Source: an uncultured Oscillospiraceae bacterium (GTDB taxonomy: Bacteria > Bacillota > Clostridia > Oscillospirales > Ruminococcaceae). From it: DNA of 42,004 nt. Positions within the stretch are counted from its first letter, which is position 1. The number at the start of each line of letters is the position of its first letter. The stretch lies in NCBI GenBank assembly GCA_964460915.1, contig CAYWRQ010000003.1:1-42004 (forward strand), in the 5' to 3' direction. The position numbers and the translations under genes are program-made. The notes under the pieces were generated by a model. It was not told where the DNA came from and did no database searches. It saw only the letters and a list, made by a program, of their open reading frames with translations. Positions 5,529 through 27,541 of this stretch are shown here, one piece after another.

Positions 5529-6821
5529 TCAGATATCGTCCCGGCACAGCTCCTCATAGGTCTGGCCCTTTATCATCACACGGTCATTTCCGCCCTGCAC
5601 CATGACAACAGGGGGGATCGGGTTACGGTTATAGCAGGACGCCATCGAATAATTATACGCTCCGGTGGACAACACCGCCATAATATCGCCCGCCTCGGCC
5701 TTTGCCAACGGGACGTTTTCCCCCAGCAGGTCGCCCGATTCGCAGCACTTGCCCGCGACGGTCACAACCGTATCGGCCTGTGCATCCGCTTTATTGGCCA
5801 GCAGGAAATCGTACTTGGACTGGTAGAGAATATAACGGGGGTTGTCGCCCATGCCGCCGTCGACCGACACATAGGTACGGATATCCGGGATCTGCTTGAC
5901 GGAGCCGATTGTGTACAGGGTGGTACCCGCTTCGCCGACAATGCTTCTTCCCGGCTCCATCAGGATAAACGGGGTGTTCAGGCCGAGTGCCTTTGCCTTC
6001 TGATGGATTGCTTCGGAAACGGCCTCCATATACTCCGCGTACGGCACCGGGTCGTCCTCGTCCGTATAACGGATACCGTAGCCGCCGCCGAGGTTCAGCT
6101 CCTCGATTTCGTAGCCGGTTTCCTTCTTCACATCGCCGATCAGCTGCATCAAGACCTCTGCCGCTTTGACAAAGGGCGTAACCTCATGGATCTGGGAGCC
6201 GATGTGGCAATGGATCCCGCATAGACGGACAGAGGGCGTCCGGATGGCCTGCTTGATGGCCTCCATCGCCTCGCCCGTCTCAAGGGCAAAGCCGAACTTG
6301 GAATCAATCTGGCCGGTCATAATAAATTGATGGGTATGGGCGTCAATGCCGGGCTTGATACGCAGCATAATTGGCTGGGTTACGTCCAGTTCCTCCGCCA
6401 TTTTGCCGACACGGTCCAGTTCCTCAATATTGTCGACGACAATCCGGCCGACACGGTTTTGCAGCGCCATCCAAATCTCCCCGTCGGACTTGTTGTTGCC
6501 ATGGAAGCAGACATTCTCCATCGGGAACCCGACCGACAGCGCCGTATACAGTTCGCCGCCCGACACGACATCCGCGCCCAGCCCCTCGCTTCTCGCAATC
6601 CGGTACATCTCCTTACAGCAAAAAGCCTTAGAAGCATAGCAGATCAGCCCGCGGCCGTCGTAAAAGCGGTCGATGGAATCGCGGTAGGCGCGCATCGCGA
6701 CGCGGATCGTATCCTCTTCCATAACATACAGCGGCGTTCCGTACTTTTCCGCCAATACGACCGCATCTACACCGCCCAATACGAGATGACCTTCCGCATT
6801 GACATTTACTCTTCTGTCCAT
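5529..6821 (-). CDS. lysA: Diaminopimelate decarboxylase
   Basis: Fold-III PLP decarboxylase signatures (YASKAF with the PLP lysine, HCHIGSQ, EPGRSIVG, CESGD). Start is the ATG at 6821 (MDRRVNV), preceded by AAGGAAAGGGA. The Arg-rich 61-aa upstream extension of the ORF was rejected. Confidence 0.9.
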   Translation of the reverse strand: MDRRVNVNAEGHLVLGGVDAVVLAEKYGTPLYVMEEDTIRVAMRAYRDSIDRFYDGRGLICYASKAFCCKEMYRIARSEGLGADVVSGGELYTALSVGFPMENVCFHGNNKSDGEIWMALQNRVGRIVVDNIEELDRVGKMAEELDVTQPIMLRIKPGIDAHTHQFIMTGQIDSKFGFALETGEAMEAIKQAIRTPSVRLCGIHCHIGSQIHEVTPFVKAAEVLMQLIGDVKKETGYEIEELNLGGGYGIRYTDEDDPVPYAEYMEAVSEAIHQKAKALGLNTPFILMEPGRSIVGEAGTTLYTIGSVKQIPDIRTYVSVDGGMGDNPRYILYQSKYDFLLANKADAQADTVVTVAGKCCESGDLLGENVPLAKAEAGDIMAVLSTGAYNYSMASCYNRNPIPPVVMVQGGNDRVMIKGQTYEELCRDDI

Positions 6822-6879
6822 TTTCAATTCCCTTTCCTTATTTTCTCTATCCCGGCCGCAGGAAAAACGCCGCCGGTAT

Positions 6880-7584
6880 CTATTCATCAAAGCCGATATA
6901 CTCGACCTTAATCTCTTCGTCCTTTGGCTGCTCCTCCGTTTCTGCGGCCGACTGTTCCGGCCGCGCCGGCAGCAGCTCAGGATGCTCCGCACAGAAGGTG
7001 ACAAGCTGCGTCAAAATTTCCCGCAGCTGCTCCACCCCTTCCCCGTCCTTGGCGGAAAAAGGCAGGATCACCGTATCCTCCCCTACCTCCGGCAGCTCCT
7101 CACGGATAGAGGCAAGGCGGTTTGCCCGCTCGGTCTTGTTGAGCTTGTCGGCCTTTGTCAGCACAATGATAAACGGAATTTCCATCTGCACCAGAAAATG
7201 GATCATTTCGATATCCTGCACAGACGGCGGGTGCCGCATATCAACCAGCTGCACCACCAAGCCGAGAAACCGTTTTTCATCCTTCAGATACCCTTCAATC
7301 AGCCCCGACCAGCGCTTTTTCTCGCTCAGCCCGACCTTTGCGTAGCCATAGCCCGGCAGATCGACCAGATGCATCTGATTGTCCAGGTTATAGAAATTGA
7401 TCGTAACCGTTTTCCCCGGCTCCGAGCTGACCCGCGCCAGGGCTTTCCGCTCCAAAAGGCGGTTGATAAGCGAGGATTTCCCGGCGTTGGAGCGCCCGGA
7501 AAAAGCGACCTCCGGAAGCCGTGAAAGCGGGATCTGCTGATGCAGGCCATAAGCTGCCTCAAAGGATACATTATGATAATTCAT
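6880..7584 (-). CDS. engB: Ribosome-biogenesis GTPase EngB/YsxC with an acidic C-terminal tail
   Basis: G1 GRSNAGKSSLIN, G3 DLPGYG and G4 TKADK motifs. It sits immediately downstream of lon, as in Bacillus lonA-ysxC. Confidence 0.88.
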   Translation of the reverse strand: MNYHNVSFEAAYGLHQQIPLSRLPEVAFSGRSNAGKSSLINRLLERKALARVSSEPGKTVTINFYNLDNQMHLVDLPGYGYAKVGLSEKKRWSGLIEGYLKDEKRFLGLVVQLVDMRHPPSVQDIEMIHFLVQMEIPFIIVLTKADKLNKTERANRLASIREELPEVGEDTVILPFSAKDGEGVEQLREILTQLVTFCAEHPELLPARPEQSAAETEEQPKDEEIKVEYIGFDE

Positions 7585-7684
7585 CTATTCAGCCTTTCTT
7601 CTTGCCTTCCCATCCTATGCATCCGCACCCCGGACGGGAAAGCACACGCTTCTATAAAGCAATGGATACTCCGTGGGCGGGAGA

Positions 7685-10129
7685 TCAGCATTGGACCCCG
7701 CTGCGCACAGGATCCGTATGCGGCAGATTCGCCGTCGGGATTTCCGGTTTTTCGGGACGCTCCAGTACCGACGTCTTCTCTGTGATCGGCTCCCGCCGGA
7801 TCAGCACCCGGTCCAAAATCTCGTCGACATGGTGCACCGGCACAAACTCGACCTTCTCCTTGACAACGGCTTCTACCTCTTCCAGATCCTTTTGGTTCTC
7901 CCAGGGGATGAAAACCGTATGAATCCCCCGGCGGTAGGCCGCCATAGATTTCTCCCGCAGGCCGCCGATCGGCAGTACCCGGCCGTGGAGGGTAATCTCC
8001 CCGGTCATGGCCACATCGTGGCGCACCGGCTGGCCCGAAAGGGCCGAAACCAAGCAGGTCGTCATCGTCACACCGGCGGAAGGGCCGTCCTTCGGCACCG
8101 CTCCTTCGGGAGCATGGATATGAATATCGTTCTTCCGGTAAAATTCCGGATCAATATGATACCGGTCCGCAAGGCTGCGCACCAGGCTGACTGCAATCTG
8201 GGCCGATTCCGTCATCACCTCTCCCAGAGAGCCGGTTATCTGGATTTTCCCGACGCCCGGAAGGATGATCGCCTCGATCTCCATTGTCTCGCCGCCAGCC
8301 GAGGTCCAGGCAAGGCCGTTGACAACGCCGACCTGATCCTCCTGTTCCATGACCGAATCGGTATAACGCGGGATCCCGAGCAGCTCTTCCAGATTTTTCG
8401 GCGTCACACTCAGGCTTTCGGTTTCCCCGGAGACAATGCTCTTTGCAGCCTTCCGGCAGATCGAAGCCAGCTCCCGCTCCAGCTGACGGACGCCGGACTC
8501 CCTCGTATAGCTGTCAATCAAGGCGTACAGCGCCTTTTTGTTGATCTTCAGCTGCGCAGAGCTTAGGCCGTGCTTTTTCATCTGCTTGGGCAACAGATGT
8601 TTGCGGGCAATATGCCATTTTTCCTCGCGGGTATAGCTGTTCATCTCAATCAGTTCCATACGGTCCATCAGCGGGCGCGGAATCATCGAGACGTCATTGG
8701 CCGTTGTGATAAACAATACATCCGATAGGTCAAAGGGAACCTCCAGATAGTGGTCGCGGAATTCGACATTCTGTTCCGGATCCAAAACCTCCAGCATCGC
8801 CGAGCTGGGATCCCCCTTATAATCGGCGCTCATCTTATCGACCTCATCCAGCAGGATCAGCGGGTTACGGGTCCCGGCCTGCTTGATCGCGTCGATGATG
8901 CGGCCGGGCATCGACCCGAGGTAAGTCTTGCGGTGGCCGCGGATTTCCGCCTCATCCTTCACGCCGCCAAGGGAAATACGGACATATTTCCGTCCCAGCG
9001 CCTCCGCGACCGAACGGGCGACCGAGGTCTTGCCGACACCGGGAGGGCCGGCGAGGCACAGAATCTGCCCCTTGATATCCGGCGCCATCTTCCGGACCGC
9101 GATCAATTCCAGGATCCGTTTCTTGACCTTATCCATACCGTAATGGTCGCGGTTTAAAATCCTTTCAGCCCGGGCAATATCGTTATGGTCTTCGCTCATC
9201 TTATCCCAGGGGAGGTCGGTAACCGTTTCCAGATAGGTCCGGATCACCTGGCCCTCCTGCGACTGGGGCGGCGTGCGGTACAGCCGCTCGCACTCCCGAA
9301 TCAGCTTTTCGCGGGATTCGTCGGAGATGTGCTGGATACCCTGGATGAACTCGGAGAAATACATCGAGTCCTCCATCGGGGAATCCCCTTCCCCCAGTTC
9401 GGCCGAAATCACCCGCAGCTGCTCGCGCAGGAAATAATCGCGCTGGTTTTTATCCATCGAATCCTTGACCTGGTCGTAGATATCCCGCTCCCAGCCCATC
9501 ACCGAAACCTCCCGCTGCAACACGGCTACCAGCATCCCGATACGGGTTGCGAGGTCCGGCTCTTCCAAAAGCTCCTGCTTATCCTCGACCTGCAAAAACA
9601 GGCTCTGGACAATTTTATCATACATCCCCTTCGGCGTCTTCTGGGACAGTACAGCCGTTACAATCTCGTCCGGCATCTTCGGTACCATTTCCACATACTC
9701 GTCAAAGCCCCGGATCATCGCCCGCAGCATGGCCTCCTGCTGCTCATCGGTCGCGTCCAGCTGGTTGTGATCGTAAAGCCTTCTGACCTGGGCTGTATAA
9801 AACGGCCCGGAAAGGTCATAATGAATGGCTTCCGCCTTGTACAGCCCTTCCACCATTACGCGGACGGAATTTTTGCCGTTGCCCAGCATCTGGACAATCC
9901 GGGCCACAACCCCAACCGTATAGATTTCGTCTTCTTTGGGTGATTCAACCGTAAAATCCTTCTGTGCCGCGAGAAAAAGCCGCTTATCCTGTGCCATAGC
10001 TTCGCGAATGGCCTGGATAGACTGCTCTCTGTTGACATCAAAATGCAGGGTCATCGCCGGGAACATGACGATACCGCGCATAGCCAGTGCCGGGAGAATC
10101 ATCATCTGCTCTCTTCCTTCGTTTTCCAT
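7685..10129 (-). CDS. lon: ATP-dependent Lon protease
   Basis: 814 aa with a Lon N-terminal domain, Walker [10 protein letters not shown], Walker B LLDEVDK and the protease catalytic serine motif PKDGPSAGV. Confidence 0.95.
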
Positions 10130-10539: not shown

Positions 10540-11259
10540 TTATTCACCATATCCATCCCGGAAGAGCCTCAAAACCTCTCCAATCGATAATTCCGCCAAT
10601 TCCATTTCCGATGCCGTATGGGCGGAGAGGACCTCCAGCGCATGGGCATCCGAATCGGTAATGATCCGATACTTCTCGTCTCCAGGCGGGACAAAACCCT
10701 TTTTGATCCCGTTCGGGCTGATCTCAACGGTCTTCACTTCCAGCTCGGGCGGAATCATGCCGAGATTGGACAAAACCGAGTAAGAGGACTTGTCGATATG
10801 CGCCGGGACCGGTACGCCGCCGTACCCGCGCACCCTCTTAAACACCTCGTTGATGGAAAAGCGGGTCGCGTTGATGAGCAGCTTGTCCAGTTCCCCGATC
10901 GGGTTATCTTCCTCATCCAAAATCCGCTGAGTGCCAAAAATATTCGGCTTGTTCCGCACCGGCGGTAGCGCCTCATAAAGCTCCTCTCCCATGGCCAGAG
11001 CCGTCTCCAAATCGGGGAAAAGGGAAAGGATATGCGCTTCCTCCGCCGTTGTAATCTCAATCGCCGGAATCAGCAGGATACCGGCCTCCTCCGTCAGCTT
11101 CTGCACAGCCGGGAGCTGACGGGCCGTATTGTGATCCGCGACGGCGATCATCGGAAGTTCCAGAATTTGTGCCATCCCTACAATATTGTTCGGCGTCATC
11201 TCCTCATCCCCGCAGGGAGAAAGGCAGGAATGGATATGCAGATCGTACGGAATCAGCAA
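10540..11259 (-). CDS. PHP-domain phosphoesterase (putative protein phosphatase of the HydS cassette)
   Basis: N-terminal DLHIHSCLSPCGD is typical of PHP metal-binding motif 1, followed by later ADHN and HID motifs. Proposed TTG start at 11259, preceded by GGAAGGAG and overlapping the upstream stop by 7 nt. The longer ORF to 11325 lies inside the upstream gene. Confidence 0.7.
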   Translation of the reverse strand: MLIPYDLHIHSCLSPCGDEEMTPNNIVGMAQILELPMIAVADHNTARQLPAVQKLTEEAGILLIPAIEITTAEEAHILSLFPDLETALAMGEELYEALPPVRNKPNIFGTQRILDEEDNPIGELDKLLINATRFSINEVFKRVRGYGGVPVPAHIDKSSYSVLSNLGMIPPELEVKTVEISPNGIKKGFVPPGDEKYRIITDSDAHALEVLSAHTASEMELAELSIGEVLRLFRDGYGE

Positions 11260-11591
11260 AGCCCCAACTCCTTCCCAAGCTTTAAAGCAACCGCAAAGCT
11301 TGGCCCATCGCTTTCGAGGACGCAAACATCCTGCTGCTCCGCACGGGAGCGGCTCATATCGTCAAAATGAATCCCTTCGCACAGGATTACACAGGCCACA
11401 TCCGCCAGTACGGCAACCGCAATCGTATTCACATTGGCCATGACCGTTACAAAGGCGTCGTTTTCCTTTGCGCGCCCCATAACCATACTGAGCAGGTCAC
11501 AGCAGTACGCGCCCTCAATCTGGCGCTCTTCCCCACAGCCAACATTCACAACCCGCAGGCCGTGTTTTTCAGCAAATTCAATTGGCGTCAT
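11253..11591 (-). CDS. Single-domain DRTGG protein (second copy)
   Basis: 112 aa. The pattern CCDLLSMVMGRAKENDAFVTVMANVNTIAVAVL...VCVLESDGPSFAVALKLG matches the stand-alone DRTGG family. The ATG at 11591 overlaps the hydS stop by 14 nt. Confidence 0.7.
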   Translation of the reverse strand: MTPIEFAEKHGLRVVNVGCGEERQIEGAYCCDLLSMVMGRAKENDAFVTVMANVNTIAVAVLADVACVILCEGIHFDDMSRSRAEQQDVCVLESDGPSFAVALKLGKELGLC

Positions 11592-12870
11592 CCGGTTTTT
11601 CCCCCTTTTCTTCCGTACGGAACGGAGCCGGTACATAATTCTTATACCGGAAAATACAATCATCAATCGACGCCAGCCCGCGCACGACGTCCTCCGCCAG
11701 CGCACGGCAGGACGGTGCACCGCAGGACCCGCAGTCCAGACCCTCCAGCGACTGGTAAATCTCCTCTACCTGCTCCATCTTCAGCATCGCTTCCCAGACA
11801 TCCTCGTCCAGTTTCAGCACCGGCACAAATTCCAGCGGCGTATCCCAATTCAGATCGCTGTCGATGATATCCGAGTTTTCCAGATGGTTTAAGCTGACCG
11901 GCAGGTGCTTCCGGATACGGTACAGCTTTGTCTTGGCAACATACGGGTTTTCAACATTCAAGACGCCGCCGACACATCCGCCCGCGCAGGCGTTCAGCTC
12001 GATAAAGTCCACGTCTCGGAACTTCTCGTCCTCCAAATCCTCCAGCACGCGGATCACGTTTTCAATGCCGTCCGCCGCCAGATAGTTGTCATTGATCAGC
12101 CCGGAGCACTCGCCGCCGCTGCTGCCCCAGGAAAGGCCGATCTTCCCGGACTCCGAAATATCCTTGGGCGAATCTTCTTTCATGAACGGGAGCAGCTTGG
12201 AATAGATATCGCTGACGGCGACAACGCCGTCTACCCAGCTCTTTTCCGTCCCCAGCGGCATTTTCGTCGCGGTCACCTTTGCCGGGCAGGGGGAGATAAA
12301 AATCGCGCCGATCTGTTCCAGCGGAAGGCCGGTTTTTTTCGCCGCCGCCCGTTTCGCCATCCGAGCCGCAACCTCAATCGGGGCGTGGAGCGGCAGTACC
12401 TGGTCGATCATCCCCGGGAAACGGACCCGGATCAGCCGCGTGACGGCCGGGCAGGCCGAACTGATAACCGGCTTTATCAGCTTACCGGAATTCATCATCT
12501 GCCTGGTGGCGGCCGAAACGATTTCCGCCGCCTTGGCTACCTCAAATACCTCGTCGAATCCAAAGTCCGTGAGCGCGTTCAGGACAATGTCCACATCTTC
12601 TAGGTTATTAAACTGCGCCATAAAGGACGGCGCGGGAAGGGCGATGGTATACGAAAAATTGTGAAGGATATCCAGACTGTCGCAGGTCGCGCGCTTTGCG
12701 TGATGCGGGCAGACCCGGATACATTCACCGCAGTCAATACATCGTTCGGCGATTATGTATGCCTTTTTGTTACGCACCCGGATCGCTTCGGTCGGACAAC
12801 GCTTGATGCAGTTGATGCACCCTTTACATCGGTCACGATCCAGCGTTACCGAGTGGAAAAACTCCTGCAT
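11578..12870 (-). CDS. hydS: Sensory-type [FeFe]-hydrogenase homologue (HydS-like, no PAS domain)
   Basis: N-terminal 2x[4Fe-4S] ferredoxin motifs (CKGCINCIKRCP, CIDCGECIRVCP). The H-domain motifs are variant: SSACP in place of TSCCP, SPCPAK in place of MPCxxK, and ACAGGCVGG in place of CxxGCxxGGG. A C-terminal CGSCGAPSC-x16-C motif is present. AGGAGG lies 8 nt before the ATG. Confidence 0.8.
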   Translation of the reverse strand: MQEFFHSVTLDRDRCKGCINCIKRCPTEAIRVRNKKAYIIAERCIDCGECIRVCPHHAKRATCDSLDILHNFSYTIALPAPSFMAQFNNLEDVDIVLNALTDFGFDEVFEVAKAAEIVSAATRQMMNSGKLIKPVISSACPAVTRLIRVRFPGMIDQVLPLHAPIEVAARMAKRAAAKKTGLPLEQIGAIFISPCPAKVTATKMPLGTEKSWVDGVVAVSDIYSKLLPFMKEDSPKDISESGKIGLSWGSSGGECSGLINDNYLAADGIENVIRVLEDLEDEKFRDVDFIELNACAGGCVGGVLNVENPYVAKTKLYRIRKHLPVSLNHLENSDIIDSDLNWDTPLEFVPVLKLDEDVWEAMLKMEQVEEIYQSLEGLDCGSCGAPSCRALAEDVVRGLASIDDCIFRYKNYVPAPFRTEEKGEKPDDAN

Positions 12871-12943
12871 AATAAGTACCTCCTGTTCTATATAAAATAG
12901 GGAAAGAGCGTATTCCCCTCTGTCATTTTTTCAAAAGAATCGA

Positions 12944-12968
12944 CTGCCTCCCGGTCTTAGGGAGGCAG
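12944..12968 (-). other. Intra-operon hairpin between the kinase gene and hydS
   Basis: Perfect 9-bp stem CTGCCTCCC / GGGAGGCAG with a 7-nt loop. On the minus strand it is followed by TCGATTCTTTTG. Confidence 0.5.
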
Positions 12969-13002
12969 AAGCGATACGAAAGTTTATATCAATCAGAACC
13001 AA

Positions 13003-13440
13003 TCATGCTTTTGCCGACTTTCCGATATAGACGGTCATATAAACCGTCGTACCGACGCCAACCGTGGATTCAATCCGCATTTCATCCGTATTTTTTTTCA
13101 TATTCGGCAGGCCCATGCCCGCGCCGAAGCCAAGCGAACGCACTTCATCCGCCGCCGTGGACCAGCCGGCCTGCATCGCCTGCTCGATGTCGGGAATTCC
13201 CTTCCCTTTGTCCGCCAGGATCATATCGATCCGGTCTGGGGACATTTCAATTGTAATGGTACCGCCTTTGGCATGGATGACCATGTTGATCTCCCCTTCA
13301 TACAGGGCGATCGATACCTTGCGAATCACCTCGGACGAGACGCCGAGCGCCCGCAGCTTTTTCTTCAAATTGGAAGAAGCCTCACCGGCACGGGTAAAAT
13401 CGCTGCCGTCTACCTCATACACCCACTTGAGCGCGCTCAT
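13003..13440 (-). CDS. RsbW/SpoIIAB-like serine protein kinase (HATPase_c-only, anti-sigma-factor type)
   Basis: 145 aa with N-box EGEINMVIHA, G1 DKGKGI and G2 GFGAGMGLPN. The ATG at 13440 is preceded by GGGGAGGGA and overlaps the upstream DRTGG gene by 26 nt. Confidence 0.75.
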   Translation of the reverse strand: MSALKWVYEVDGSDFTRAGEASSNLKKKLRALGVSSEVIRKVSIALYEGEINMVIHAKGGTITIEMSPDRIDMILADKGKGIPDIEQAMQAGWSTAADEVRSLGFGAGMGLPNMKKNTDEMRIESTVGVGTTVYMTVYIGKSAKA

Positions 13441-13798
13441 CTGATTTCCCTCCCCGCAGACCGTTTTCCCAAAGCAGCCCGCAGGCTGTAAACATACGGT
13501 GGTGGGTCGAGAGCAAAACCATCCCCCGCCGCTGTGCCAACGCAATCATATCTTCATCCGGCTTCTTGCCCCGGACGAAGACAATACATACCATATCCAT
13601 CATATCCGCCGTACGGACGGTCTGGATATTGACCAGGCCCGTCAGCAGCACCGCCTGATCCTTCACATAGGCCAGCACGTCGCTCATCATGTCGGAACCG
13701 CATGCCTCATGGACCTCCGTATCCAGACAATCCTCTCCACAAATGATCTCCGCATCCAAAACACGCATTACATCCTGAACATTCATTGAAATACTCAT
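13415..13798 (-). CDS. Single-domain DRTGG protein (first copy)
   Basis: 127 aa. The pattern GSDMMSDVLAYVKDQAVLLTGLVNIQTVRTA...VLLSTHHRMFTACGLL is typical of small DRTGG proteins. The start could be the ATG at 13798 or the ATG four codons downstream. Confidence 0.7.
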   Translation of the reverse strand: MSISMNVQDVMRVLDAEIICGEDCLDTEVHEACGSDMMSDVLAYVKDQAVLLTGLVNIQTVRTADMMDMVCIVFVRGKKPDEDMIALAQRRGMVLLSTHHRMFTACGLLWENGLRGGKSDERAQVGV

Positions 13799-13980
13799 TC
13801 CTTTCTCGTTTTACTGGGTATATGCCCCTACCCTATGGGGAATTTCAAATCCCGTTTCCAGATACAAATCGATTTTCCGCTGCCGCAAACGTACCATGCC
13901 CATATGTAGTCTCGTACAGCATATGCCATATAATTTTCTATATGGGCTGATTTAATAAAAATCTTTTTGTACTGCTTACT

Positions 13981-14009
13981 ATTATATACGATTTCCTGAA
14001 TATATGCAA
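13981..14009 (-). promoter_or_regulatory. Candidate promoter of the HydS cassette
   Basis: On the minus strand: TTGCAT (14009..14004), a 17-nt spacer, then TATAAT (13986..13981). This implies a leader of about 175 nt. Confidence 0.55.
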
Positions 14010-14104
14010 TAGATTTAATGACCATAAAAACTTTTTTGTCAAACCTGTTCAAAATTTAACGGAAAGGTTGTATAACCATAATACTAGAATTTCTCAAAAA
14101 GTTA

Positions 14105-14113
14105 TGGTATACT
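14105..14113 (+). promoter_or_regulatory. Candidate extended -10 promoter of the hydrogenase structural operon
   Basis: TGgTATACT at 14105..14113 with no good -35. This implies a leader of about 115 nt. Confidence 0.4.
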
Positions 14114-14236
14114 TATATAAAAGCATATGTGTATTTCGACCATAGAAGTGCCGTTGCTTGCCGGACAACCGACGTGGTGGCCGGCGTTCTTTTCGGTTAT
14201 GTATCCCCGCATTCAAACCATAAGGAGGTTTATCTT

Positions 14237-14734
14237 ATGTCCAACAAAAAGCCCGGCGTCCTTTTTAAGGATACACCGGAACAAAAGCAGAAACTCGAAG
14301 AGATCATCGCGGCGCACAAAGACCAGCCCGGTGCGCTGATGCCGATCCTTCAACAGGCACAGGAGCTGTACGGATATCTTCCCATTGAGATCCAGACCAC
14401 CATTGCACAGGCCTTGGATATCCCGCTGGAAGAGGTATACGGCGTTGTAACCTTTTACGCGCAGTTCTCCCTCTATCCCAAGGGACAGTATAAGATTTCC
14501 GTATGTCTGGGCACCGCCTGCTATGTAAAAGGCTCCGGCACCATTTATGATAAGCTTCAGCAGATCCTTGGCATCAGCGGCGGCGAGTGCACACCGGACG
14601 GCAAGTTTTCGCTGGAGGCGTGCCGTTGCGTCGGCGCTTGCGGCCTTGCTCCCGTTATGACCGTCAACGACGAGGTTTTTGGTAAGCTCGTTCCCGACGA
14701 TATCGAGGGGATCCTCGCGAAATTCGGCGCTTAA
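14237..14734 (+). CDS. hydC: NuoE-like [2Fe-2S] subunit of NAD(H)-linked [FeFe]-hydrogenase (HydC)
   Basis: Thioredoxin-like 2Fe-2S motifs CLGTAC and CRCVGAC. The ATG at 14237 is preceded by AAGGAGG. The upstream part of ORF 14129..14734 has no RBS. Confidence 0.88.
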   Translation: MSNKKPGVLFKDTPEQKQKLEEIIAAHKDQPGALMPILQQAQELYGYLPIEIQTTIAQALDIPLEEVYGVVTFYAQFSLYPKGQYKISVCLGTACYVKGSGTIYDKLQQILGISGGECTPDGKFSLEACRCVGACGLAPVMTVNDEVFGKLVPDDIEGILAKFGA

Positions 14735-14758
14735 TTTTCTAGAAAGGACTGTGCCGTT

Positions 14759-15301
14759 ATGCAGGAACTCTCTTTAAATGTTTTGGATATTGCACAGAAT
14801 TCGGTCCGTGCCAAAGCGTCTTTGGTAACGATCTCTGTAACACAGCGCACAAGCGACCACTACTTGGAGATTTCTATTGCTGATGACGGCTGCGGTATGT
14901 CGGAAGAACAGGTTGCCCGGGTAATTGATCCGTTTTTTACAACCCGTACGACCCGTAAGGTTGGACTTGGCGTCTCTTTCTTTAAAATGTCGGCAGAGGC
15001 CACCGGAGGCGATTTTTCCATCCAATCGAAGCTTGGCAAGGGCACCGTTACGACTGCCAGCTACCATACCGATCACATCGATATGCTGCCGATTGGCGAT
15101 ATGAACGAGACCATCCATACCCTAATCACGATGAATCCCGATATGGATTTTGTTTATCAGCGTACGCTGGATGATAAAACCTTTACTTTGGATACCCGGG
15201 AGCTGAAAGCGGTTCTCGAAGATATCCCCCTCAATTCTCCTGAGGTTTCCCTCTTTATTCAGGAAACCCTGGCAGAAGGGGAAGCGGAATTAACGACTTA
15301 G
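14759..15301 (+). CDS. HATPase_c-only protein (histidine-kinase-like ATPase without a sensor or His-phosphotransfer domain) embedded in the hydrogenase operon
   Basis: N-box-like LDIAQNSVRA, G1 DDGCGM and G2 GLGVSF, followed by a roughly 75-aa C-terminal region I do not recognise. Confidence 0.75.
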   Translation: MQELSLNVLDIAQNSVRAKASLVTISVTQRTSDHYLEISIADDGCGMSEEQVARVIDPFFTTRTTRKVGLGVSFFKMSAEATGGDFSIQSKLGKGTVTTASYHTDHIDMLPIGDMNETIHTLITMNPDMDFVYQRTLDDKTFTLDTRELKAVLEDIPLNSPEVSLFIQETLAEGEAELTT

Positions 15302-15324
15302 TATACAGAAAGGATAGATTTGTT

Positions 15325-15705
15325 ATGAAGAGTTTGGAAGAACTTAGAGCAATTCGGGATCGCGCGAAAAACGGCGTGCATCTGCGGAAAGAAAATTCTC
15401 CCGACAGCATCCGTGTCGTCGTCGGTATGGCGACCTGCGGTATCGCCGCCGGTGCAAGACCGGTTTTGACCGCGTTTACCAATGAGGTAGCCAAACGGGA
15501 TTTGCAAAATGTTATGGTTACCCAGACTGGATGCATTGGCCTTTGCCAGTATGAACCCATCGTTGAGGTGTATGAGCCCGACGGAAAAGTAACCACTTAT
15601 GTAAAAATGAACGCGGATAAGGTTGGACGCATTGTTACCGAGCATCTGGTCAACGGAAATGTTGTTGATGAATACACCATCGGCAGTCTCGGCAAATTAA
15701 AATAA
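15325..15705 (+). CDS. Small thioredoxin-like ferredoxin-fold subunit (HydD-like)
   Basis: 126 aa. It resembles the N-terminal 2Fe-2S domain of HydB (GCIGLCQYEP versus GCFGLCALGP) but contains only three Cys in total. Confidence 0.65.
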   Translation: MKSLEELRAIRDRAKNGVHLRKENSPDSIRVVVGMATCGIAAGARPVLTAFTNEVAKRDLQNVMVTQTGCIGLCQYEPIVEVYEPDGKVTTYVKMNADKVGRIVTEHLVNGNVVDEYTIGSLGKLK

Positions 15706-15717
15706 GGAGGCAACTTC

Positions 15718-17508
15718 ATGTATCGTTCTCATGTCCTGGTTTGTGGAGGCACTGGGTGTTCCTCTTCCAACAGCCAGCAAATCATCGACGCACTGGAAAC
15801 TGAAATCGCCGCAGCCGGTCTGTCCGACGAAGTTAAAGTCGTAAAAACCGGTTGCTTTGGCTTGTGTGCACTCGGCCCGATTATGATTATCTATCCGGAA
15901 GGCTCCTTCTATTCGGAAGTCAAGCCCTCCGACGTTCCGGAAATTGTCCAGGAGCATCTGCTCAAAGGCCGTATTGTAAAACGTCTGCTTTACCAAGAGA
16001 CCGTTCAGGAAAGCAACAACGTCAAATCCCTGAACGAGACGCAGTTCTATGCAAAACAGAACCGTGTCGCACTGCGCAACTGCGGCGTTATCAACCCTGA
16101 AAACATTGAAGAATACATAGCTGTTGACGGTTATGCGGCTCTGGGCAAGGTTCTGACCGAAATGACCCCCCAGCAGGTTATCGACACCATCCTCGCTTCC
16201 GGCCTGCGCGGACGCGGCGGCGCTGGCTTCCCAACCGGCAGAAAATGGGCTTTTGCCGCTGCAAACCAGGCTGACCAGAAGTACGTCTGCTGCAACGCCG
16301 ACGAAGGCGACCCCGGTGCGTTCATGGACCGTTCCGTCCTGGAAGGCGACCCCCATGTTGTATTGGAAGCAATGGCAATCGCAGGCTACGCAATCGGTGC
16401 TTCTCAGGGCTATATCTATGTCCGTGCAGAGTACCCGATCGCTGTTCACCGCCTGCAGATCGCAATCAAACAGGCAAGAGAATACGGCCTTTTGGGCAAG
16501 GATATCTTCGGCACCGGCTTTGACTTTGACATCGACCTCCGTCTCGGCGCCGGCGCATTCGTCTGCGGCGAGGAAACCGCTCTGATGACCTCGATCGAAG
16601 GCCACCGCGGCGAACCCCGTCCCCGTCCTCCCTTCCCTGCCGTTAAAGGCCTGTTCCAGAAACCCACCATTCTGAACAACGTTGAGACCTACGCAAACGT
16701 TCCGCGCATCATCCTCAACGGCGCAGACTGGTTTGCTTCGATGGGTACGGAAAAGTCCAAGGGCACGAAGGTATTCGCCCTGGGTGGCAAGATCAACAAC
16801 ACTGGCCTGGTCGAAGTTCCGATGGGCACCACCCTGCGCGAGATCGTCGAAGAAATCGGCGGCGGCATCCCCAACGGCAAGAAATTCAAGGCGGCGCAGA
16901 CCGGCGGTCCTTCCGGCGGATGCATCCCGGCCGAGCACCTCGATATCCCGATCGACTATGACAACCTGATCTCGATCGGCTCGATGATGGGCTCCGGCGG
17001 CCTGATTGTTATGGACGAGGACACCTGTATGGTCGATATTGCGAAGTTCTTCCTCGAATTCACTGTCGACGAATCCTGCGGTAAGTGTACTCCCTGCCGA
17101 GTCGGTACCAAGAGATTGTATGAGATGCTTGATAAGATTACCCGTGGTGAAGCAACCATGGAGGATCTTGATAAACTGGAAGAACTCTGCTATTACGTAA
17201 AAAATAATTCTTTGTGTGGCCTCGGCCAGACTGCCCCGAACCCGATCCTGTCTACCCTGCGGTACTTCCGCGATGAATATGTCGCGCATATTGTAGACAA
17301 GACTTGCCCGGCAGGCGTCTGCAAGCACCTGATGAAATACACCATTGATCCTGCCAAGTGTAAGGGGTGTACGCTTTGTGCACGCAACTGCCCTGTCGGC
17401 GCAATCAGCGGTACAGTCAAACAGCCTCATGTCATCGATTCGGCTAAGTGCATCAAGTGCGGAGCCTGCATGGAGAAGTGCAGATTCGGCGCGATCAGCA
17501 AGAAATAA
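15718..17508 (+). CDS. hydB: NuoF-like FMN/NAD(H)-binding subunit of [FeFe]-hydrogenase (HydB)
   Basis: N-terminal 2Fe-2S motifs (VCGGTGC, GCFGLC), FMN site GRGGAGFPTGRKW, CNADEGDPGAF, 4Fe-4S motif ESCGKCTPCR and a C-terminal 2x[4Fe-4S] region (CKGCTLCARNCP, CIKCGACMEKC). Confidence 0.93.
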   Translation: MYRSHVLVCGGTGCSSSNSQQIIDALETEIAAAGLSDEVKVVKTGCFGLCALGPIMIIYPEGSFYSEVKPSDVPEIVQEHLLKGRIVKRLLYQETVQESNNVKSLNETQFYAKQNRVALRNCGVINPENIEEYIAVDGYAALGKVLTEMTPQQVIDTILASGLRGRGGAGFPTGRKWAFAAANQADQKYVCCNADEGDPGAFMDRSVLEGDPHVVLEAMAIAGYAIGASQGYIYVRAEYPIAVHRLQIAIKQAREYGLLGKDIFGTGFDFDIDLRLGAGAFVCGEETALMTSIEGHRGEPRPRPPFPAVKGLFQKPTILNNVETYANVPRIILNGADWFASMGTEKSKGTKVFALGGKINNTGLVEVPMGTTLREIVEEIGGGIPNGKKFKAAQTGGPSGGCIPAEHLDIPIDYDNLISIGSMMGSGGLIVMDEDTCMVDIAKFFLEFTVDESCGKCTPCRVGTKRLYEMLDKITRGEATMEDLDKLEELCYYVKNNSLCGLGQTAPNPILSTLRYFRDEYVAHIVDKTCPAGVCKHLMKYTIDPAKCKGCTLCARNCPVGAISGTVKQPHVIDSAKCIKCGACMEKCRFGAISKK

Positions 17509-17617
17509 TCAGGGAAAAAAGTTTATTGTCTTTGCCGGTCAATCGGCATGACCGGTAGCCTGTCCCAGCCTAGCTTGGCGCCGACAGGCAAGCAAAAACG
17601 GAAAGGAACATGAGAAG

Positions 17618-19360
17618 ATGATAAATCTAAAAATCAATAATATCCCTATCTCTGTCGAGCCTGGCACCACTATCTTGGAAGCCGCCCGTCAGCTGGGTAT
17701 CAATATTCCCACCCTTTGTTACCTTAAGGACATCAACGAAATCGGTGCTTGCAGAATCTGCACCGTTGAGGTAAAGAATGCCAAGGGTTTGCTCCCTGCT
17801 TGTGTTTACCCGGTAAACGAAGGAATGGAAGTATTCACTAATTCCATAAAGGTTCTCGACGCCCGTAAGAAAAACCTTGAGTTGCTGCTTTCTGTGCATC
17901 ATAAGGAATGTTTGTCCTGTCCCAGAAGTGGCAGCTGTGAATTCCAGAAGCTGTGCAACGATTACGGCATCTCTGATGAACATGTTTATGAAGGCGTGAA
18001 AAATGAATATGAAATCGATGACAGCGCTGTTCACATGATCCGTGACAATTCCAAGTGTGTACTTTGTCGCCGTTGTGTAGCTGTATGTCGGAAGTATCAG
18101 GATTGCGGCGTCATTGGCCCAATCGATCGTGGTTTCCAGACCCACATTGGTTCTGCTTTCGAGCAGAACCTGGCTGATGTTGCTTGCGTATCCTGCGGTC
18201 AGTGCATTGCTGCTTGCCCCACTGGCGCTCTTCAAGAAAAAGATTCCACTGACAAGGTTTGGGCTGCCCTGTCCGATCCGACCAAAACTGTTATCGTTCA
18301 GACTGCCCCTGCGGTCAGGGTCGGACTTGGTGAATCGTTTGGCCTGCCAATGGGTACCAATGTTGAAGGCAAGATGGTGGCTGCTCTCCGTCGTATCGGT
18401 TTTACAAAGGTATTTGATACCGTTTTTGGCGCGGATCTGACAATCATGGAAGAAGCAAATGAACTGGTCGAAAGAATTAAAACTGGCGGCGTTCTTCCGA
18501 TGATCACTTCTTGCAGCCCTGGTTGGGTTAAGTACTGCGAATACTACTTCCCTGATCTGATTCCGAACCTGTCCACAACTAAATCGCCTCAGCAGATATT
18601 CGGTGCAACTGTAAAAACTTGGTATGCGGAAAAAATGGGGATAGATCCTAAGAATATTGTTGTTGTTTCCATCATGCCCTGCACCGCTAAGAAATTCGAG
18701 ATCGGCCGTGACGATCAGAACGCTGCCGGTGTTCCCGACGTCGATATCTCGCTGACCACCAGAGAACTGGCGAAGATGATCAAGGCTTCCGGCCTGGACT
18801 TCAACCTCCTGCCCGATGAAGATTTCGACGCGCCTCTGGGCCTTGGCGCCGGTGCTGGCGTTATCTTCGGCGCAACCGGCGGCGTTATGGAGGCTGCTCT
18901 CCGTACCGCAAACGACTGGCTCACCGGTACCGATACGCCTGCTGAAAAGATGGACTTCACCGCTGTACGCGGCACCGAAGGCATCAAAGAAGCGACTTAT
19001 ACCGTCGGCGGCGTAACCCTCAAGGTTGCGATCTGCTCCGGCCTGGCAAACGCGAAGAAGCTGCTGACTGCGATCCGCAACGGCGAAGCAGATTATCAGT
19101 TTGTCGAAGTCATGGCTTGCCCCGGAGGCTGTGTCAACGGCGGCGGCCAACCCTTCGTTCCGGCTTCGGTCAAGAACTTTGTCAATGTTCGCGCGATCCG
19201 TGCGAAAGGCCTGTACAGCGAAGATGAGGCGCTTACGATCCGTAAATCCCATCAGAATCCCTCGATCATTGAACTGTACAACGATTACCTTGGCACTCCC
19301 GGCAGCGAAAAGGCTCACCACCTGTTGCATACCTCTTACGTTCCCCGCAAGAGATACTAA
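17618..19360 (+). CDS. hydA: [FeFe]-hydrogenase catalytic subunit (HydA, CpI-like M3 architecture)
   Basis: N-terminal 2Fe-2S domain, His-ligated cluster motif HKECLSCPRSGSC and 2x[4Fe-4S] motifs (CVLCRRCVAVC, CVSCGQCIAACP). H-cluster motifs are TSCSPGW (variant), MPCTAKKFE and EVMACPGGCVNGGGQP. Confidence 0.93.
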   Translation: MINLKINNIPISVEPGTTILEAARQLGINIPTLCYLKDINEIGACRICTVEVKNAKGLLPACVYPVNEGMEVFTNSIKVLDARKKNLELLLSVHHKECLSCPRSGSCEFQKLCNDYGISDEHVYEGVKNEYEIDDSAVHMIRDNSKCVLCRRCVAVCRKYQDCGVIGPIDRGFQTHIGSAFEQNLADVACVSCGQCIAACPTGALQEKDSTDKVWAALSDPTKTVIVQTAPAVRVGLGESFGLPMGTNVEGKMVAALRRIGFTKVFDTVFGADLTIMEEANELVERIKTGGVLPMITSCSPGWVKYCEYYFPDLIPNLSTTKSPQQIFGATVKTWYAEKMGIDPKNIVVVSIMPCTAKKFEIGRDDQNAAGVPDVDISLTTRELAKMIKASGLDFNLLPDEDFDAPLGLGAGAGVIFGATGGVMEAALRTANDWLTGTDTPAEKMDFTAVRGTEGIKEATYTVGGVTLKVAICSGLANAKKLLTAIRNGEADYQFVEVMACPGGCVNGGGQPFVPASVKNFVNVRAIRAKGLYSEDEALTIRKSHQNPSIIELYNDYLGTPGSEKAHHLLHTSYVPRKRY

Positions 19361-19578: not shown

Positions 19579-20007
19579 ATGGATTACGCGTTATTAGCAG
19601 ACGAGTTAATCCGGTATATAATTCGGCTGCGGTTCACCGAAGTGAATCGCTGCATTGACGACAATATCCGTGGAGAGCCTTTTATTTTAGCCCATGTCTA
19701 TCATGCTCACTCTGCCCTTCCCGGCGAATTGGCCGCAGCTATGCAGACTTCGACTGCATATGTGGCCAAGGTCCTGCGGGGACTGGAGGAAAAAGGGCTG
19801 ATCTGCCGCACACTGGATACCCACGACCGCAGGCGGATCCTGGTTACCCTGACAGATAAAGGGATCCGGCAGGCGGAAATGAACGAGCAGTTTGTCAAGG
19901 CAAAAACACAGCAGATGCTTGAAAATCTGGGCGCGGAAGATGCTTTGGCACTGATCCGTATCTTGAAAAAGATTTCGGGTGCCTTGGCTGAAGCACATTC
20001 CTCATAA
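19579..20007 (+). CDS. MarR family transcriptional regulator
   Basis: 142 aa with a winged-HTH region (LPGELAAAMQTSTAYVAKVLRGLEEKGLICRTLDTHDRRRILVTLTDKG). Confidence 0.85.
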   Translation: MDYALLADELIRYIIRLRFTEVNRCIDDNIRGEPFILAHVYHAHSALPGELAAAMQTSTAYVAKVLRGLEEKGLICRTLDTHDRRRILVTLTDKGIRQAEMNEQFVKAKTQQMLENLGAEDALALIRILKKISGALAEAHSS

Positions 20008-20118
20008 GCAGCACCGCAAACGGCAGCTGGAAAGCTGCCTATTTAAAAGGAAAAATGCTAACCTTTTTAGCTAACTTTGTTCATATTCTTCATGTTTTCG
20101 TCATAAGGAGGTTACACA

Positions 20119-24156: not shown

Positions 24157-25068
24157 TTACCGGTCGGTCAAAAACGCCTGCACCTCCGCCGCCGACGGGA
24201 TTGAGGCCTGTGCGCTGGGGCGGGAAACGGCAATCGCGGCGGCTGTATTGGCGTACTGCAGCGCCTCTTCGATACTGCCCGCATAGGCACACACAAAGGC
24301 CGCCGTAAAGCAGTCCCCGGCGGCCGTAGAGTCGACCGCCCGCACCTTTCGCGCCGGTACCAGGACCGGCTTTCCTTCCCCGACCGCGAGGACGCCCCTG
24401 CTCCCAAGGGAAACCAGCACCGTCCCCGCTCCTTTTTGCCGCAGAGTATGTGCCGCCGCTTCGCACTCCTCCACCGTACCGGCCGGCATACCGGTCAGGA
24501 TTGCCAGCTCTGTTTCATTGGGTTTGATGAAATCCGCAAGGCCGATCAGTTCATCCGGCAGATCCGGAACCGCCGGGGCCGGATCCAAAACGACCGTCTT
24601 GCCCAACCGGTGCGCCAGCTCCGCACCATATAAAACCGTCTCGACCGGCACCTCCAGCTGCAGGACTACGCAGTCTGCCGCTTCGATCAGCGCCCGATGG
24701 CGGTCGATATCGCCGGGAGAGAGGGTTCCGTTGGCACCGGAAAGGATGATGATGCTGTTCTCTCCGGAGGAATCGACCGTAATAAAGGCCTGCCCGGTCG
24801 GCTGTTCCCGGCGGGCAATGCCGGAAACATCCACCCCGACCCTTTGCAGATTCTCCAGCAGCAGCTTCCCCGCGTCGTCCTCTCCTACGGCCCCGATCAT
24901 CGCCGTCCCGCACCCCAGTTTCCCGAGGGCATAGGCCTGGTTGGCCCCTTTCCCGCCCGGGGTCAGGGTCAGCGTATCCGCCGAAACCGTCTGTCCGGGG
25001 CGCGGCATCTGCTGTAAACCAATCGAATAATCGAGATTCAAGCTTCCGATTACAACCGCTTTTTTCAT
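24157..25068 (-). CDS. rbsK: Ribokinase
   Basis: PfkB family with GSLNLDY, GGKGANQA and a C-terminal DSTAAGDCF anion-hole motif. Confidence 0.85.
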   Translation of the reverse strand: MKKAVVIGSLNLDYSIGLQQMPRPGQTVSADTLTLTPGGKGANQAYALGKLGCGTAMIGAVGEDDAGKLLLENLQRVGVDVSGIARREQPTGQAFITVDSSGENSIIILSGANGTLSPGDIDRHRALIEAADCVVLQLEVPVETVLYGAELAHRLGKTVVLDPAPAVPDLPDELIGLADFIKPNETELAILTGMPAGTVEECEAAAHTLRQKGAGTVLVSLGSRGVLAVGEGKPVLVPARKVRAVDSTAAGDCFTAAFVCAYAGSIEEALQYANTAAAIAVSRPSAQASIPSAAEVQAFLTDR

Positions 25069-25106
25069 AAACAGCCTTCCCTTCGCAAATACTTCAAAAC
25101 CAAATC

Positions 25107-27335: not shown

Positions 27336-27479
27336 TAAAATCACAGCCTTTCCGGCGCGGCCCGCTGAGCTACCCATCGAACCGGCAGGACGCACCATTC
27401 TTTACCTCTATTGTACAGAATTTGCCCGATCATTGCAAGACGGGGTTCATTTGATATCCGGATAAGTTTATAAAAAAAC

Positions 27480-27508: not shown

Positions 27509-27541
27509 AGAAGGTATCAGAACGTTAAGGAAGGAAACATC

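Follow-up and report, generated by a model that had tools for sequence, protein, structure and literature searches.

Group D, or M2e, [FeFe]-hydrogenases were defined by two N-terminal [4Fe-4S] motifs, a C-terminal Cx2Cx4Cx16C motif and no PAS domain, together with an H-domain from which Cys299 and the group A proton pathway are absent and in which Ser or Thr takes the place of Met353 (Land et al., 2020, PMC8163306). The M2e gene has a HATPase gene and the genes of a trimeric hydrogenase of group A as its neighbors, and the same study already posed the question of how a signal is relayed without a PAS domain. The class has been studied by spectroscopy, electrochemistry and mutagenesis since 2019-2020, with further sources in Cabotaje et al., 2023 (PMC10407848) and Schumann et al., 2026 (PMC13104023), and group D was still listed as functionally undefined in Cell in 2024 (PMC11216029).

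In the type enzyme, TamHydS of Thermoanaerobacter mathranii, for which maturation with the [2Fe] subcluster and H2 activation have been demonstrated, H+/H2 interconversion is slow and reversible, at rates as low as those of the putative sensor TmHydS (PMC8163306). TamHydS-type enzymes have a raised H2 affinity and stabilize reduced H-cluster states, and a group-D-specific alternative proton pathway, E252-E289-S249-D265, has been described in TamHydS (Cabotaje et al., 2023, PMC10407848). Exposure to H2 alters both its H-cluster state and its secondary structure (PMC13104023). Only strong reductants, and not H2, reduce the C-terminal cluster of TamHydS (Schumann et al., 2026, PMC13104023); a redox-relay role for the accessory cluster is therefore unlikely, and the domain that holds it may be a docking surface.

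Here, we describe a locus in a 42,004-nt stretch of DNA from an uncultured gut Oscillospiraceae bacterium (the window; contig CAYWRQ010000003.1), where a gene of this kind, hydS, lies in a sensor operon encoded divergently from a bifurcating-type hydrogenase operon (Table 1). We report that HydS is very probably a group D (M2e) [FeFe]-hydrogenase, orthologous to TamHydS and a putative H2 sensor, and that it belongs to a gene module of essentially invariant composition.

Table 1. Features of the hydS locus, with positions in the window
Feature	Position	Strand	Evidence
PHP-family metal-dependent phosphoesterase	10540..11259	minus	Pfam PHP; PDB 3e0f, metal-dependent phosphoesterase
DRTGG-domain protein B (DRTGG_B), 112 aa	11253..11591	minus	Pfam DRTGG 4.5e-5, slightly below gathering score
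hydS, probable group D (M2e), putative H2-sensing [FeFe]-hydrogenase, 430 aa	11578..12870	minus	ORF and RBS, Pfam, TamHydS identity, AF2/Foldseek
HydS predicted C-terminal accessory [4Fe-4S] domain, aa 375-407	11650..11748	minus	PF04060 1.4e-12, motif search, AF2 model
HydS H-domain, aa 75-302	11965..12648	minus	Fe_hyd_lg_C, alignment to CpI, residue mapping to TamHydS, conservation
HydS N-terminal F-domain, aa 8-58	12697..12849	minus	Two [4Fe-4S] motifs; Pfam Fer4 dicluster families
SpoIIAB/RsbW-like serine-kinase-type ATPase, 145 aa from ATG 13440	13003..13440	minus	Pfam HATPase_c_2
DRTGG-domain protein A (DRTGG_A), 127 aa, first sensor-operon gene	13415..13798	minus	Pfam DRTGG 2.2e-7
AT-rich divergent intergenic region, 435 bp, sensor operon/hydCDBA	13799..14233		Sequence read directly
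Bifurcating-type hydrogenase operon, hydC-HATPase_c-hydD-hydB-hydA, divergent	14234..19360	plus	Pfam, NCBIfam
hydC, NuoE-like		plus	Pfam
HATPase_c	14759-15301	plus	Pfam
hydD, small 2Fe-2S	15325-15705	plus	Pfam
hydB, NuoF-like	15718-17508	plus	Pfam
hydA	17618-19360	plus	Pfam; FeFe_hydrog_A6 893 bits (NCBIfam)

HydS is a probable group D hydrogenase

The 430-aa reading frame that a sequence-only reading had placed at this site is real, with an ATG start and the ribosome-binding site AGGAGG at 8 nt upstream; its strand is the minus strand, and stops interrupt the plus-strand translation of 11578-12870. The F-domain carries two CxxCxxCxxxC motifs (C15/C18/C21/C25 and C44/C47/C50/C54) whose eight Cys are invariant among 125 homologues. 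It is followed by a divergent H-domain, where the Pfam family Fe_hyd_lg_C (PF02906) scores 98.7 bits over residues 75-302 (cut-off 22.1). The C-terminal PF04060 'FeS' domain, which recurs at the N-terminus of RnfB (9eri_B), has the exact Cx2Cx4Cx16C spacing that the sequence-only reading had noticed (C380-x2-C383-x4-C388-x16-C405). The same motif occurs in 110 of 122 family representatives, each standing for a cluster at 50% identity. After the last Cys, the protein continues for 25 residues rather than the 27 first counted, and residues 422-430 are predicted to be disordered.

The H-cluster motifs recognized in that first reading hold up: SSACP starts at residue 137, SPCPAK at 193, NACAGGC at 293 and GGVLN, the tail of motif 3, at 301. 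The four predicted H-cluster ligands, C140 (SSACP), C195 (SPCPAK) and C295 and C299 (both in NACAGGC), align to the ligands of CpI. Ala139 is the counterpart of CpI Cys299 because the HMMER alignment places SSACP on TS(C/A)CP of CpI, in agreement with the proposed loss of the proton-relay Cys. Ser193 occupies the CpI M353 position and Asn293 the M497 position. Across the family, the H-cluster Cys are kept in at least 121 of the 122 representatives, and the Met353 position holds Thr or Ser in 106 (Thr 59 and Ser 47 in a tally of 123). Since the Cys are invariant or nearly so in both the 125 homologues and the 122 representatives, the cysteine pattern of HydS is not due to chance. Residues S251, E254, D267 and E291 match the group D proton path (E252-E289-S249-D265 in TamHydS numbering), with E291 kept in 113 and E254 in 90 of the 122 representatives. 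As judged from its sequence, HydS should thus be able to bind an H-cluster through C140, C195, C295 and C299, as well as two N-terminal [4Fe-4S] clusters and one C-terminal cluster in the PF04060 domain. It would lack the group A proton relay (Cys299 to Ala139, Met353 to Ser193) and appears to have the alternative relay of group D. HydS does not fit the prototypical group A catalysts: Cys299, Met353 and Met497 are replaced by Ala139, Ser193 and Asn293, and HydS reaches 91 bits with the NCBIfam group A model TIGR02512, where the cut-off is 406 and HydA of the window has 528.

HydS and TamHydS are 54% identical over 411 aa (E 2e-161). The TamHydS reference used for this comparison was rebuilt from the published coding sequence and repaired by reading frame; the rebuilt protein has 99% and 96% matches to Thermoanaerobacter database proteins. 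The two proteins share their domain order, a similar length (430 aa for HydS, 435 aa for TamHydS), SSACP, Ser at the Met353 position, the proton relay, Cx2Cx4Cx16C, and the charged residues R31, R33, K36, K59, D379, E393, D394 and D404. All TamHydS functional residues that we mapped are kept in HydS except K126 (Ser128) and S384 (Ala385). They also differ at the Met497 position, which is variable according to the literature and is Leu in TamHydS but Asn293 in HydS, and in the tail, which is shorter in HydS. Thermoanaerobacter is a thermophile, whereas the host of HydS is a mesophilic gut Oscillospiraceae. With relatives in at least 593 species genomes, HydS is a typical and widespread member, from gut Clostridia, of a class, PAS-less with Cx2Cx4Cx16C, that has already been published. 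The proposal of a sensory-type [FeFe]-hydrogenase without PAS is borne out by Pfam, by the motifs and by the group D match.

A search with Pfam models for the PAS domain, which the sequence-only reading had taken to be missing, gave no match at E<=0.01 in HydS or in the other scanned cluster proteins. The AlphaFold2 (AF2) model of HydS (pLDDT 91.7, pTM 0.90) consists of helices only past residue 300, with no beta-sheet, and gives no sign of a cryptic PAS fold there; the best 50 PDB matches of this model in Foldseek are all [FeFe]-hydrogenases (TM 0.61-0.67, E 1e-17 to 1e-20). It was computed from a 125-sequence alignment that includes the Thermoanaerobacter, Thermoanaerobacterium and Caldicellulosiruptor branch, and a model from a shallow set of only 36 sequences, none under 68% identity, was discarded (pLDDT 61.9). 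The tail after the last Cys is 5-61 aa long in 114 of 122 full-length representatives, with a family median of 29 aa, and the eight long-tailed representatives have DRTGG and never PAS. Nor was PAS found in the ten longest homologues, eight of which are DRTGG or HATPase fusions in Pfam; in P0286 and P0378, which have no Pfam match, the C-termini resemble DRTGG_B by eye.

A conserved module of partner genes surrounds hydS

The kinase gene overlaps the DRTGG_A gene by 26 nt and the last 14 nt of hydS are shared with the DRTGG_B gene; because genes of the sensor operon overlap, translational coupling is suggested. DRTGG_A contains the invariant block A32-CGSDMMSDVLA-43, and a PDB search with this protein gave no matches. 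The best NCBIfam matches of the kinase are SpoIIAB and RsbW, both under their cut-offs, and its closest PDB entries are likewise SpoIIAB (1l0o/1til) and RsbW (6m36). Its N, G1 and G2 boxes are invariant or at least 95% conserved among 81 sequences, with the conserved residues E48/N52/H56, D77xGxG81 and L103-GFGAGMGLPN-113. The kinase has no His-phosphotransfer domain, and Pfam detected no STAS, PP2C or sigma factor among the products of the cluster, which has no response regulator either. For the PHP gene, translation probably begins at TTG 11259, preceded by the RBS GGAAGGAG, with the maximal ORF reaching 11325; the PHP ligands HxH, DH, E, H and DxH are invariant.

Between the kinase gene and hydS lies a gap of 132 nt with a GC-rich stem-loop (stem of 9 bp) that leads into a run of T. 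A regulatory RNA was considered here and rejected, as the length of the gap is not conserved (median 31 nt in related loci) and an Rfam scan of it gave no match; the stem-loop is at most a lineage-specific terminator or attenuator.

The hydCDBA operon is the presumed regulatory target of the sensor operon, and the intergenic region that separates them presumably holds both promoters. A promoter scan returned none within this region; its only promoter-like match nearby lies just outside, within the coding sequence of DRTGG_A (13662-13690, plus strand).

The same ten-gene content is found in Thermoanaerobacter, where DRTGG, a SpoIIAB-like kinase, HydS, DRTGG and PHP are accompanied by hydCDBA with the extra HATPase, and where these five hydrogenase-operon genes come after hydS-DRTGG-PHP. 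The sensor and hydCDBA operons are thus collinear there but divergent here. In addition, a gene for a 263-aa product with no Pfam match lies upstream of the Thermoanaerobacter cluster, while no equivalent adjoins the cluster here; an AraC-family regulator has been reported to flank TamHydS (Land et al., PMC8163306).

Among 80 related species loci, DRTGG_A, the kinase and HydS are present in all 80, with DRTGG_A upstream of the kinase. DRTGG_B is found in 79, directly downstream of hydS and on the same strand in 78, and PHP in 77, on the hydS strand and downstream of DRTGG_B in about 75. Genes of the hydCDBA type lie within 8 kb in about 51 of the 80. The DRTGG-kinase-HydS-DRTGG-PHP module is essentially invariant. 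Some homologues join these parts in one protein: DRTGG is fused to the N-terminus of HydS in P0281 and P0319 and to its C-terminus in P0253, P0262, P0376, P0315 and P0355, and the HATPase kinase is fused to HydS in P0280.

The C-terminal DRTGG of the fusions occupies the exact site of PAS in group C.

A possible relay of the H2 signal through the partner proteins

Because the order of the module is near-invariant and HydS is at times fused to DRTGG or the kinase, our findings suggest that the DRTGG, kinase and PHP proteins take the signal-relay role that is assigned to PAS in group C. The sequence-only reading had pointed to signaling by direct protein-protein contact, which is reasonable. HydS could report the H2 level of this gut bacterium through direct contact with its co-encoded partners, namely the two DRTGG proteins, the SpoIIAB/RsbW-like ATPase/serine kinase and the PHP phosphoesterase, and its signal could tune how strongly the electron-bifurcating HydABC(D) of the divergent operon is expressed, or how active it is.

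Tentatively, we picture the missing PAS as replaced by the two paralogous DRTGG proteins, the kinase and PHP, in complex with HydS, in an H2-gated phosphorylation pathway that resembles partner switching. An H2-driven conformational change of HydS would gate phosphorylation of the invariant Ser motifs GSDMMSDV of DRTGG_A and DLLS of DRTGG_B, a step that is purely hypothetical, and PHP would be the opposing phosphatase, such that the module would form a new, partner-switching-like control of a bifurcating hydrogenase. We found no DRTGG-hydrogenase link of this kind in the open-access literature.

Several observations point in the same direction as a replacement of PAS by these partners: the gene order at some 75-80 of the 80 loci, the gene overlaps, the retention of the catalytic residues of the kinase and PHP, and the fusions.

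HydS might otherwise be a genuine though slow catalyst, or assist HydABC as an electron-transfer subunit, with accessory genes that serve maturation or are unrelated. In HydS, every H-cluster ligand is conserved, as is a proton path backed by mutational data, and group D has been called functionally undefined (PMC11216029). We nevertheless consider this unlikely: the rates of TamHydS are low and near those of TmHydS (PMC8163306), none of the cryo-EM HydABC structures among the PDB matches has a HydS-like subunit, and hydS always lies beside genes for the SpoIIAB-like ATPase, DRTGG and PHP (80/80, 79/80 and 77/80 loci), at times fused, a pattern of neighbors and fusions that is typical of signaling modules and not of metabolic enzymes.

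It is more doubtful still that the H-cluster of HydS is vestigial or merely modulatory. The occurrence of PF04060 as a ferredoxin-facing cluster domain in RnfB, the response of the TamHydS C-terminal cluster to strong reductants only and the conservation of charged residues near the clusters of HydS would all be compatible with this, but the retention of the H-cluster Cys, E291 and E254 across the representatives indicates a strong purifying selection that is hard to square with irrelevant H2 chemistry, and both the H-cluster state and the secondary structure of TamHydS shift under H2 (PMC13104023).

Finally, a group C (M2f, TmHydS-like) sensor that lost its PAS to a frameshift, to faulty assembly or to decay in the recent past is effectively refuted even though groups C and D are nearest kin and share the Cx2Cx4Cx16C domain (PMC8163306). 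The stop codon of hydS lies within the beginning of the conserved DRTGG_B gene, and most family members, too, end soon after the last Cys. The E254/S251/D267 relay is a group D trait, as is the Ser that HydS has at the Met353 position, where TmHydS has Gly. Neither a Pfam PAS in the scanned proteins nor an in-frame PAS-encoding remnant downstream was found.

The sequence-only reading had rediscovered a published class rather than a new one. For annotation, the gene can be labeled a group D putative H2-sensing [FeFe]-hydrogenase and the ten-gene cluster a HydS-regulated bifurcating HydABC(D) locus, the regulation being presumed. The DRTGG-kinase-HydS-DRTGG-PHP synteny seems little discussed and, with the fusions, offers concrete candidates for the relay of the signal in group D.

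Comparison with known systems

TmHydS from Thermotoga maritima, of group C/M2f (Chongdar et al., 2018, 2023; PMC10055695), resembles HydS in its two N-terminal [4Fe-4S] clusters, in Ala at the Cys299 position (A131), in its C-terminal Cx2Cx4Cx16C cluster, and in its low activity and presumed H2-sensing role. It differs in having a C-terminal PAS domain, which HydS does not, in the residues that correspond to Met353 (Gly) and Met497 (Ser), and in the absence of E252, S249 and D265. The partners of HydS are instead DRTGG proteins, a SpoIIAB-like kinase and PHP.

In HydDB, HydS would probably be placed in the putative sensory group C1, 'histidine kinase-linked' (Sondergaard et al., 2016, PMC5037454), whose members are likewise putative sensors with a HATPase-type protein encoded alongside; the C3 subtype is described as serine/threonine phosphatase-linked. 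HATPase_C fusions have been reported among C1 enzymes of Hydrogenedentota (PMC11406978) and match the HATPase-HydS fusion P0280. The linked kinase here, however, is without DHp/HisKA and resembles the serine kinases SpoIIAB and RsbW. The label 'histidine kinase-linked' may thus misname the chemistry.

SpoIIAB/SpoIIAA and RsbW/RsbV are the partner-switching modules of Bacillus sigma-F and sigma-B regulation. The hydS module is reminiscent of them in its kinase, a small HATPase_c_2 protein that stands alone and whose N, G1 and G2 boxes are intact, and in the small alpha/beta proteins with an invariant Ser motif and the dedicated phosphoesterase that are co-encoded with it, but here DRTGG and PHP proteins stand in place of the STAS antagonist, the sigma factor and the PP2C phosphatase.

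A PAS-less [FeFe]-hydrogenase of group D

We find that hydS is one open reading frame on the minus strand, the plus-strand reading of the interval being interrupted by stops; the sequence-only reading had placed the 430-residue frame correctly and left the strand unstated. The motifs it listed are all in the translation: SSACP at residue 137, SPCPAK at 193, NACAGGC at 293, GGVLN at 301 and the Cx2Cx4Cx16C motif as C380-x2-C383-x4-C388-x16-C405, followed by 25 residues rather than the 27 it had counted. In HMMER alignments SSACP falls on TS(C/A)CP of the reference enzyme CpI, and Ala139 is therefore the counterpart of the proton-relay Cys299, in agreement with the Ala it had proposed. HydS has every ligand needed for three accessory [4Fe-4S] clusters besides the H-cluster, and is predicted to bind all four.

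Features in and around hydS (aa, residues of HydS; other positions, nucleotides of the window)
Feature	Position	Strand	Remarks
4Fe-4S dicluster domain	aa 8-58		N-terminal; Pfam
[FeFe]-hydrogenase H-domain PF02906	aa 75-302		Pfam
Small FeS domain PF04060	aa 375-407		Pfam
Five-gene set	10540-13798	-	tightly packed
PHP phosphoesterase	10540-11259	-	7-nt overlap with DRTGG_B; TTG start behind GGAAGGAG
DRTGG_B	11253-11591	-	14-nt overlap with hydS
hydS	11578-12870	-	ATG start behind AGGAGG ribosome-binding site
Kinase-hydS gap	12871-13002	-	132 nt
Stem-loop in gap	12968-12944	-	9 bp (7 GC), then T run
Kinase (HATPase_c_2)	13003-13440	-	145 aa; 26-nt overlap with DRTGG_A
DRTGG_A	13415-13798	-	upstream of kinase gene
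Second orphan HATPase_c	14759-15301	+	180 aa; inside hydC-hydD-hydB-hydA operon
MarR-family regulator, then two fused ABC exporter genes	19579-23654	+	directly 3' of hydA
Ordinary anaerobic-Clostridia housekeeping	5529-10129	-
Same	24157-28414
Same	35243-39508
tRNA	28787-28859

Land et al. [quoted passage not shown] HydS is not a group A enzyme, since it scores 91 bits on the NCBIfam group A model against a cut-off of 406; on PF02906, the window HydA encoded 5 kb away reaches 334 bits versus 98.7 for HydS. Nor is it placed in group C / M2f, whose defining PAS domain it lacks: Pfam finds no PAS family in HydS at E<=0.01, as the earlier reading had held. To the question of a cryptic PAS fold, the AlphaFold2 model (pLDDT 91.7, pTM 0.90, 125-sequence alignment) answers with helices only beyond residue 300 (309-321, 337-340, 358-374, 388-396) and disorder at 422-430; the model has no five-stranded sheet and hence no cryptic PAS. 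The 50 best Foldseek matches of this model in the PDB are all [FeFe]-hydrogenases (TM 0.61-0.67), with no group C or D structure among them.

Judged by its sequence features, HydS belongs to group D / M2e, and these features set it apart from group C. It shares 54% identity over 411 residues (E 2e-161) with TamHydS, the type enzyme from Thermoanaerobacter mathranii, whose reference we rebuilt from the coding sequence in the PMC13104023 supplement, mending OCR errors by reading frame; the result matches Thermoanaerobacter database proteins at 99% and 96%. The TamHydS proton pathway E252-E289-S249-D265 maps to E254, E291, S251 and D267; conservation of E252, S249 and D265 does not extend to groups A-C (PMC10407848). 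By sequence HydS carries the group-D proton relay, and it has no PAS domain. The charged residues surrounding the TamHydS clusters recur as well (R30, R32, K35, K58 as R31, R33, K36, K59; D378, E392, D393, D403 as D379, E393, D394, D404), and only K126 and S384 are changed among the mapped residues. At the Met497 position, which the literature calls variable, HydS has Asn and TamHydS Leu. In HydDB terms HydS is probably group C1, 'histidine kinase-linked', because the group D sequences were drawn from Greening's group C.

Distribution and conservation of the family

A word-indexed search with HydS returned at least 8000 homologues, the best 120 of which are 423-475 aa long with Fer4, PF02906 and PF04060 in common; searched exhaustively, the 50%-identity cluster representatives gave 530 clusters at E<=1e-30. 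Relatives are encoded in at least 593 GTDB species genomes, the closest (82-86% identity) in chicken-gut Oscillospiraceae MAGs (Candidatus Faecivivens, Candidatus Merdivicinus). Among 122 full-length cluster representatives, all four H-cluster cysteines are kept in at least 121, the exact Cx2Cx4Cx16C spacing in 110 and Thr or Ser at the Met353 position in 106; the median tail beyond the cluster motif is 29 aa (5-61 aa in 114 sequences). The Cys299 equivalent is Ala, Ser, Phe, Thr, His or Leu in 104/123 sequences, Cys not being among the six commonest residues. The motif pattern of HydS is more than chance.

A nearly invariant gene neighborhood

Divergent from the hydS set, the plus strand carries hydC (NuoE-like), an orphan HATPase_c gene, a small 2Fe-2S protein gene, hydB (NuoF-like) and hydA, whose product scores 893 bits on the NCBIfam model FeFe_hydrog_A6. 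When window proteins were used as tblastn queries against 80 species loci, DRTGG_A and the kinase were found in all 80, DRTGG_B in 79 (in 78 immediately 3' of hydS and in the same orientation), PHP in 77 (downstream on the hydS strand in ~75) and the hydC-to-hydA set within 8 kb, divergent or downstream, in ~51. The module DRTGG - SpoIIAB-like kinase - HydS - DRTGG - PHP is nearly invariant (loci L001-L082) and identical in Thermoanaerobacter.

The orphan HATPase_c has typical histidine-kinase catalytic-domain boxes, DHp being absent; its position is kept in ~51/80 loci and in Thermoanaerobacter, and no counterpart occurs in the cryo-EM structures of HydABC found among the PDB matches. The kinase-hydS gap has no Rfam match, contains a promoter-like TTTATA-16-TATTAT immediately upstream of hydS and varies in length among relatives (median 31 nt). 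Elsewhere the window encodes a PfkB kinase, a GH106-like protein, shikimate dehydrogenase, anaerobic ribonucleotide reductase NrdD and EPSP synthase, along with a putative diaminopimelate decarboxylase-like protein, EngB-like GTPase and Lon-like protease read from ORF translations; among the ORFs that we inspected, none was recognized as a hydEFG maturase gene.

Partner proteins and fusions

The closest solved relatives of the kinase are SpoIIAB and RsbW, which are serine kinases and anti-sigma factors. As it also lacks a His-phosphotransfer domain (no DHp/HisKA), the HydDB label may misdescribe the chemistry. Its N, G1 and G2 boxes, like the metal ligands of PHP, are conserved at 95% or more. 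A 12-residue block of DRTGG_A, A32-CGSDMMSDVLA-43, is invariant, and the D32-LLS-35 motif of DRTGG_B is related to it; the serines conserved in the two motifs are candidates for phospho-acceptors or for interface residues.

The ten longest cluster representatives were considered as PAS-bearing group C proteins and rejected, Pfam showing fusions of HydS to its neighbors instead. Among the HydS homologues, DRTGG is C-terminal in P0253, P0262, P0376, P0315 and P0355 and N-terminal in P0281 and P0319, and HATPase_c_2 is N-terminal in P0280; P0286 and P0378 have no Pfam match, though their C-termini resemble DRTGG_B by eye. On the P0253 contig the fused ORF is followed by PHP. Some fusions may be frameshift artefacts, since the genes overlap.

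A possible relay

According to the literature, TamHydS turns over slowly yet reversibly, with raised H2 affinity and stabilized reduced H-cluster states, and its secondary structure changes on H2; H2 does not reduce its C-terminal cluster, whose redox state is therefore an unlikely signal. H2 binding would alter the conformation of HydS, a change that the SpoIIAB-like kinase and the DRTGG proteins could read through direct contact, with PHP as candidate opposing phosphoesterase and HydABC(D) as hypothetical target. Neither a STAS domain nor a sigma factor, a PP2C phosphatase or a response regulator is encoded in the hydS cluster. We tentatively propose that the DRTGG proteins, the kinase and PHP assemble into a dedicated complex that relays the signal in place of PAS, which we consider somewhat less likely than not.

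Relation to known systems

The sequence-only interpretation, a sensory-type [FeFe]-hydrogenase without PAS, is correct, being supported by the group D features and the similarity to TamHydS, yet it rediscovers a published class, and how a signal is relayed without PAS was already asked by Land et al., 2020 (PMC8163306). We found no DRTGG-hydrogenase link in the open-access literature, where the only two papers naming both terms are unrelated; what we did not find discussed there is confined to the DRTGG fusions and the strict synteny of DRTGG-kinase-HydS-DRTGG-PHP. Fusion of HATPase_C to HydDB group C1 hydrogenases has been reported independently in Hydrogenedentota (PMC11406978). In the fused proteins, C-terminal DRTGG sits where group C enzymes have PAS. 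In Thermoanaerobacter, the locus for the TamHydS relative of 96% identity contains the ten genes described here, all in one direction, whereas in the window they form two divergent sets.
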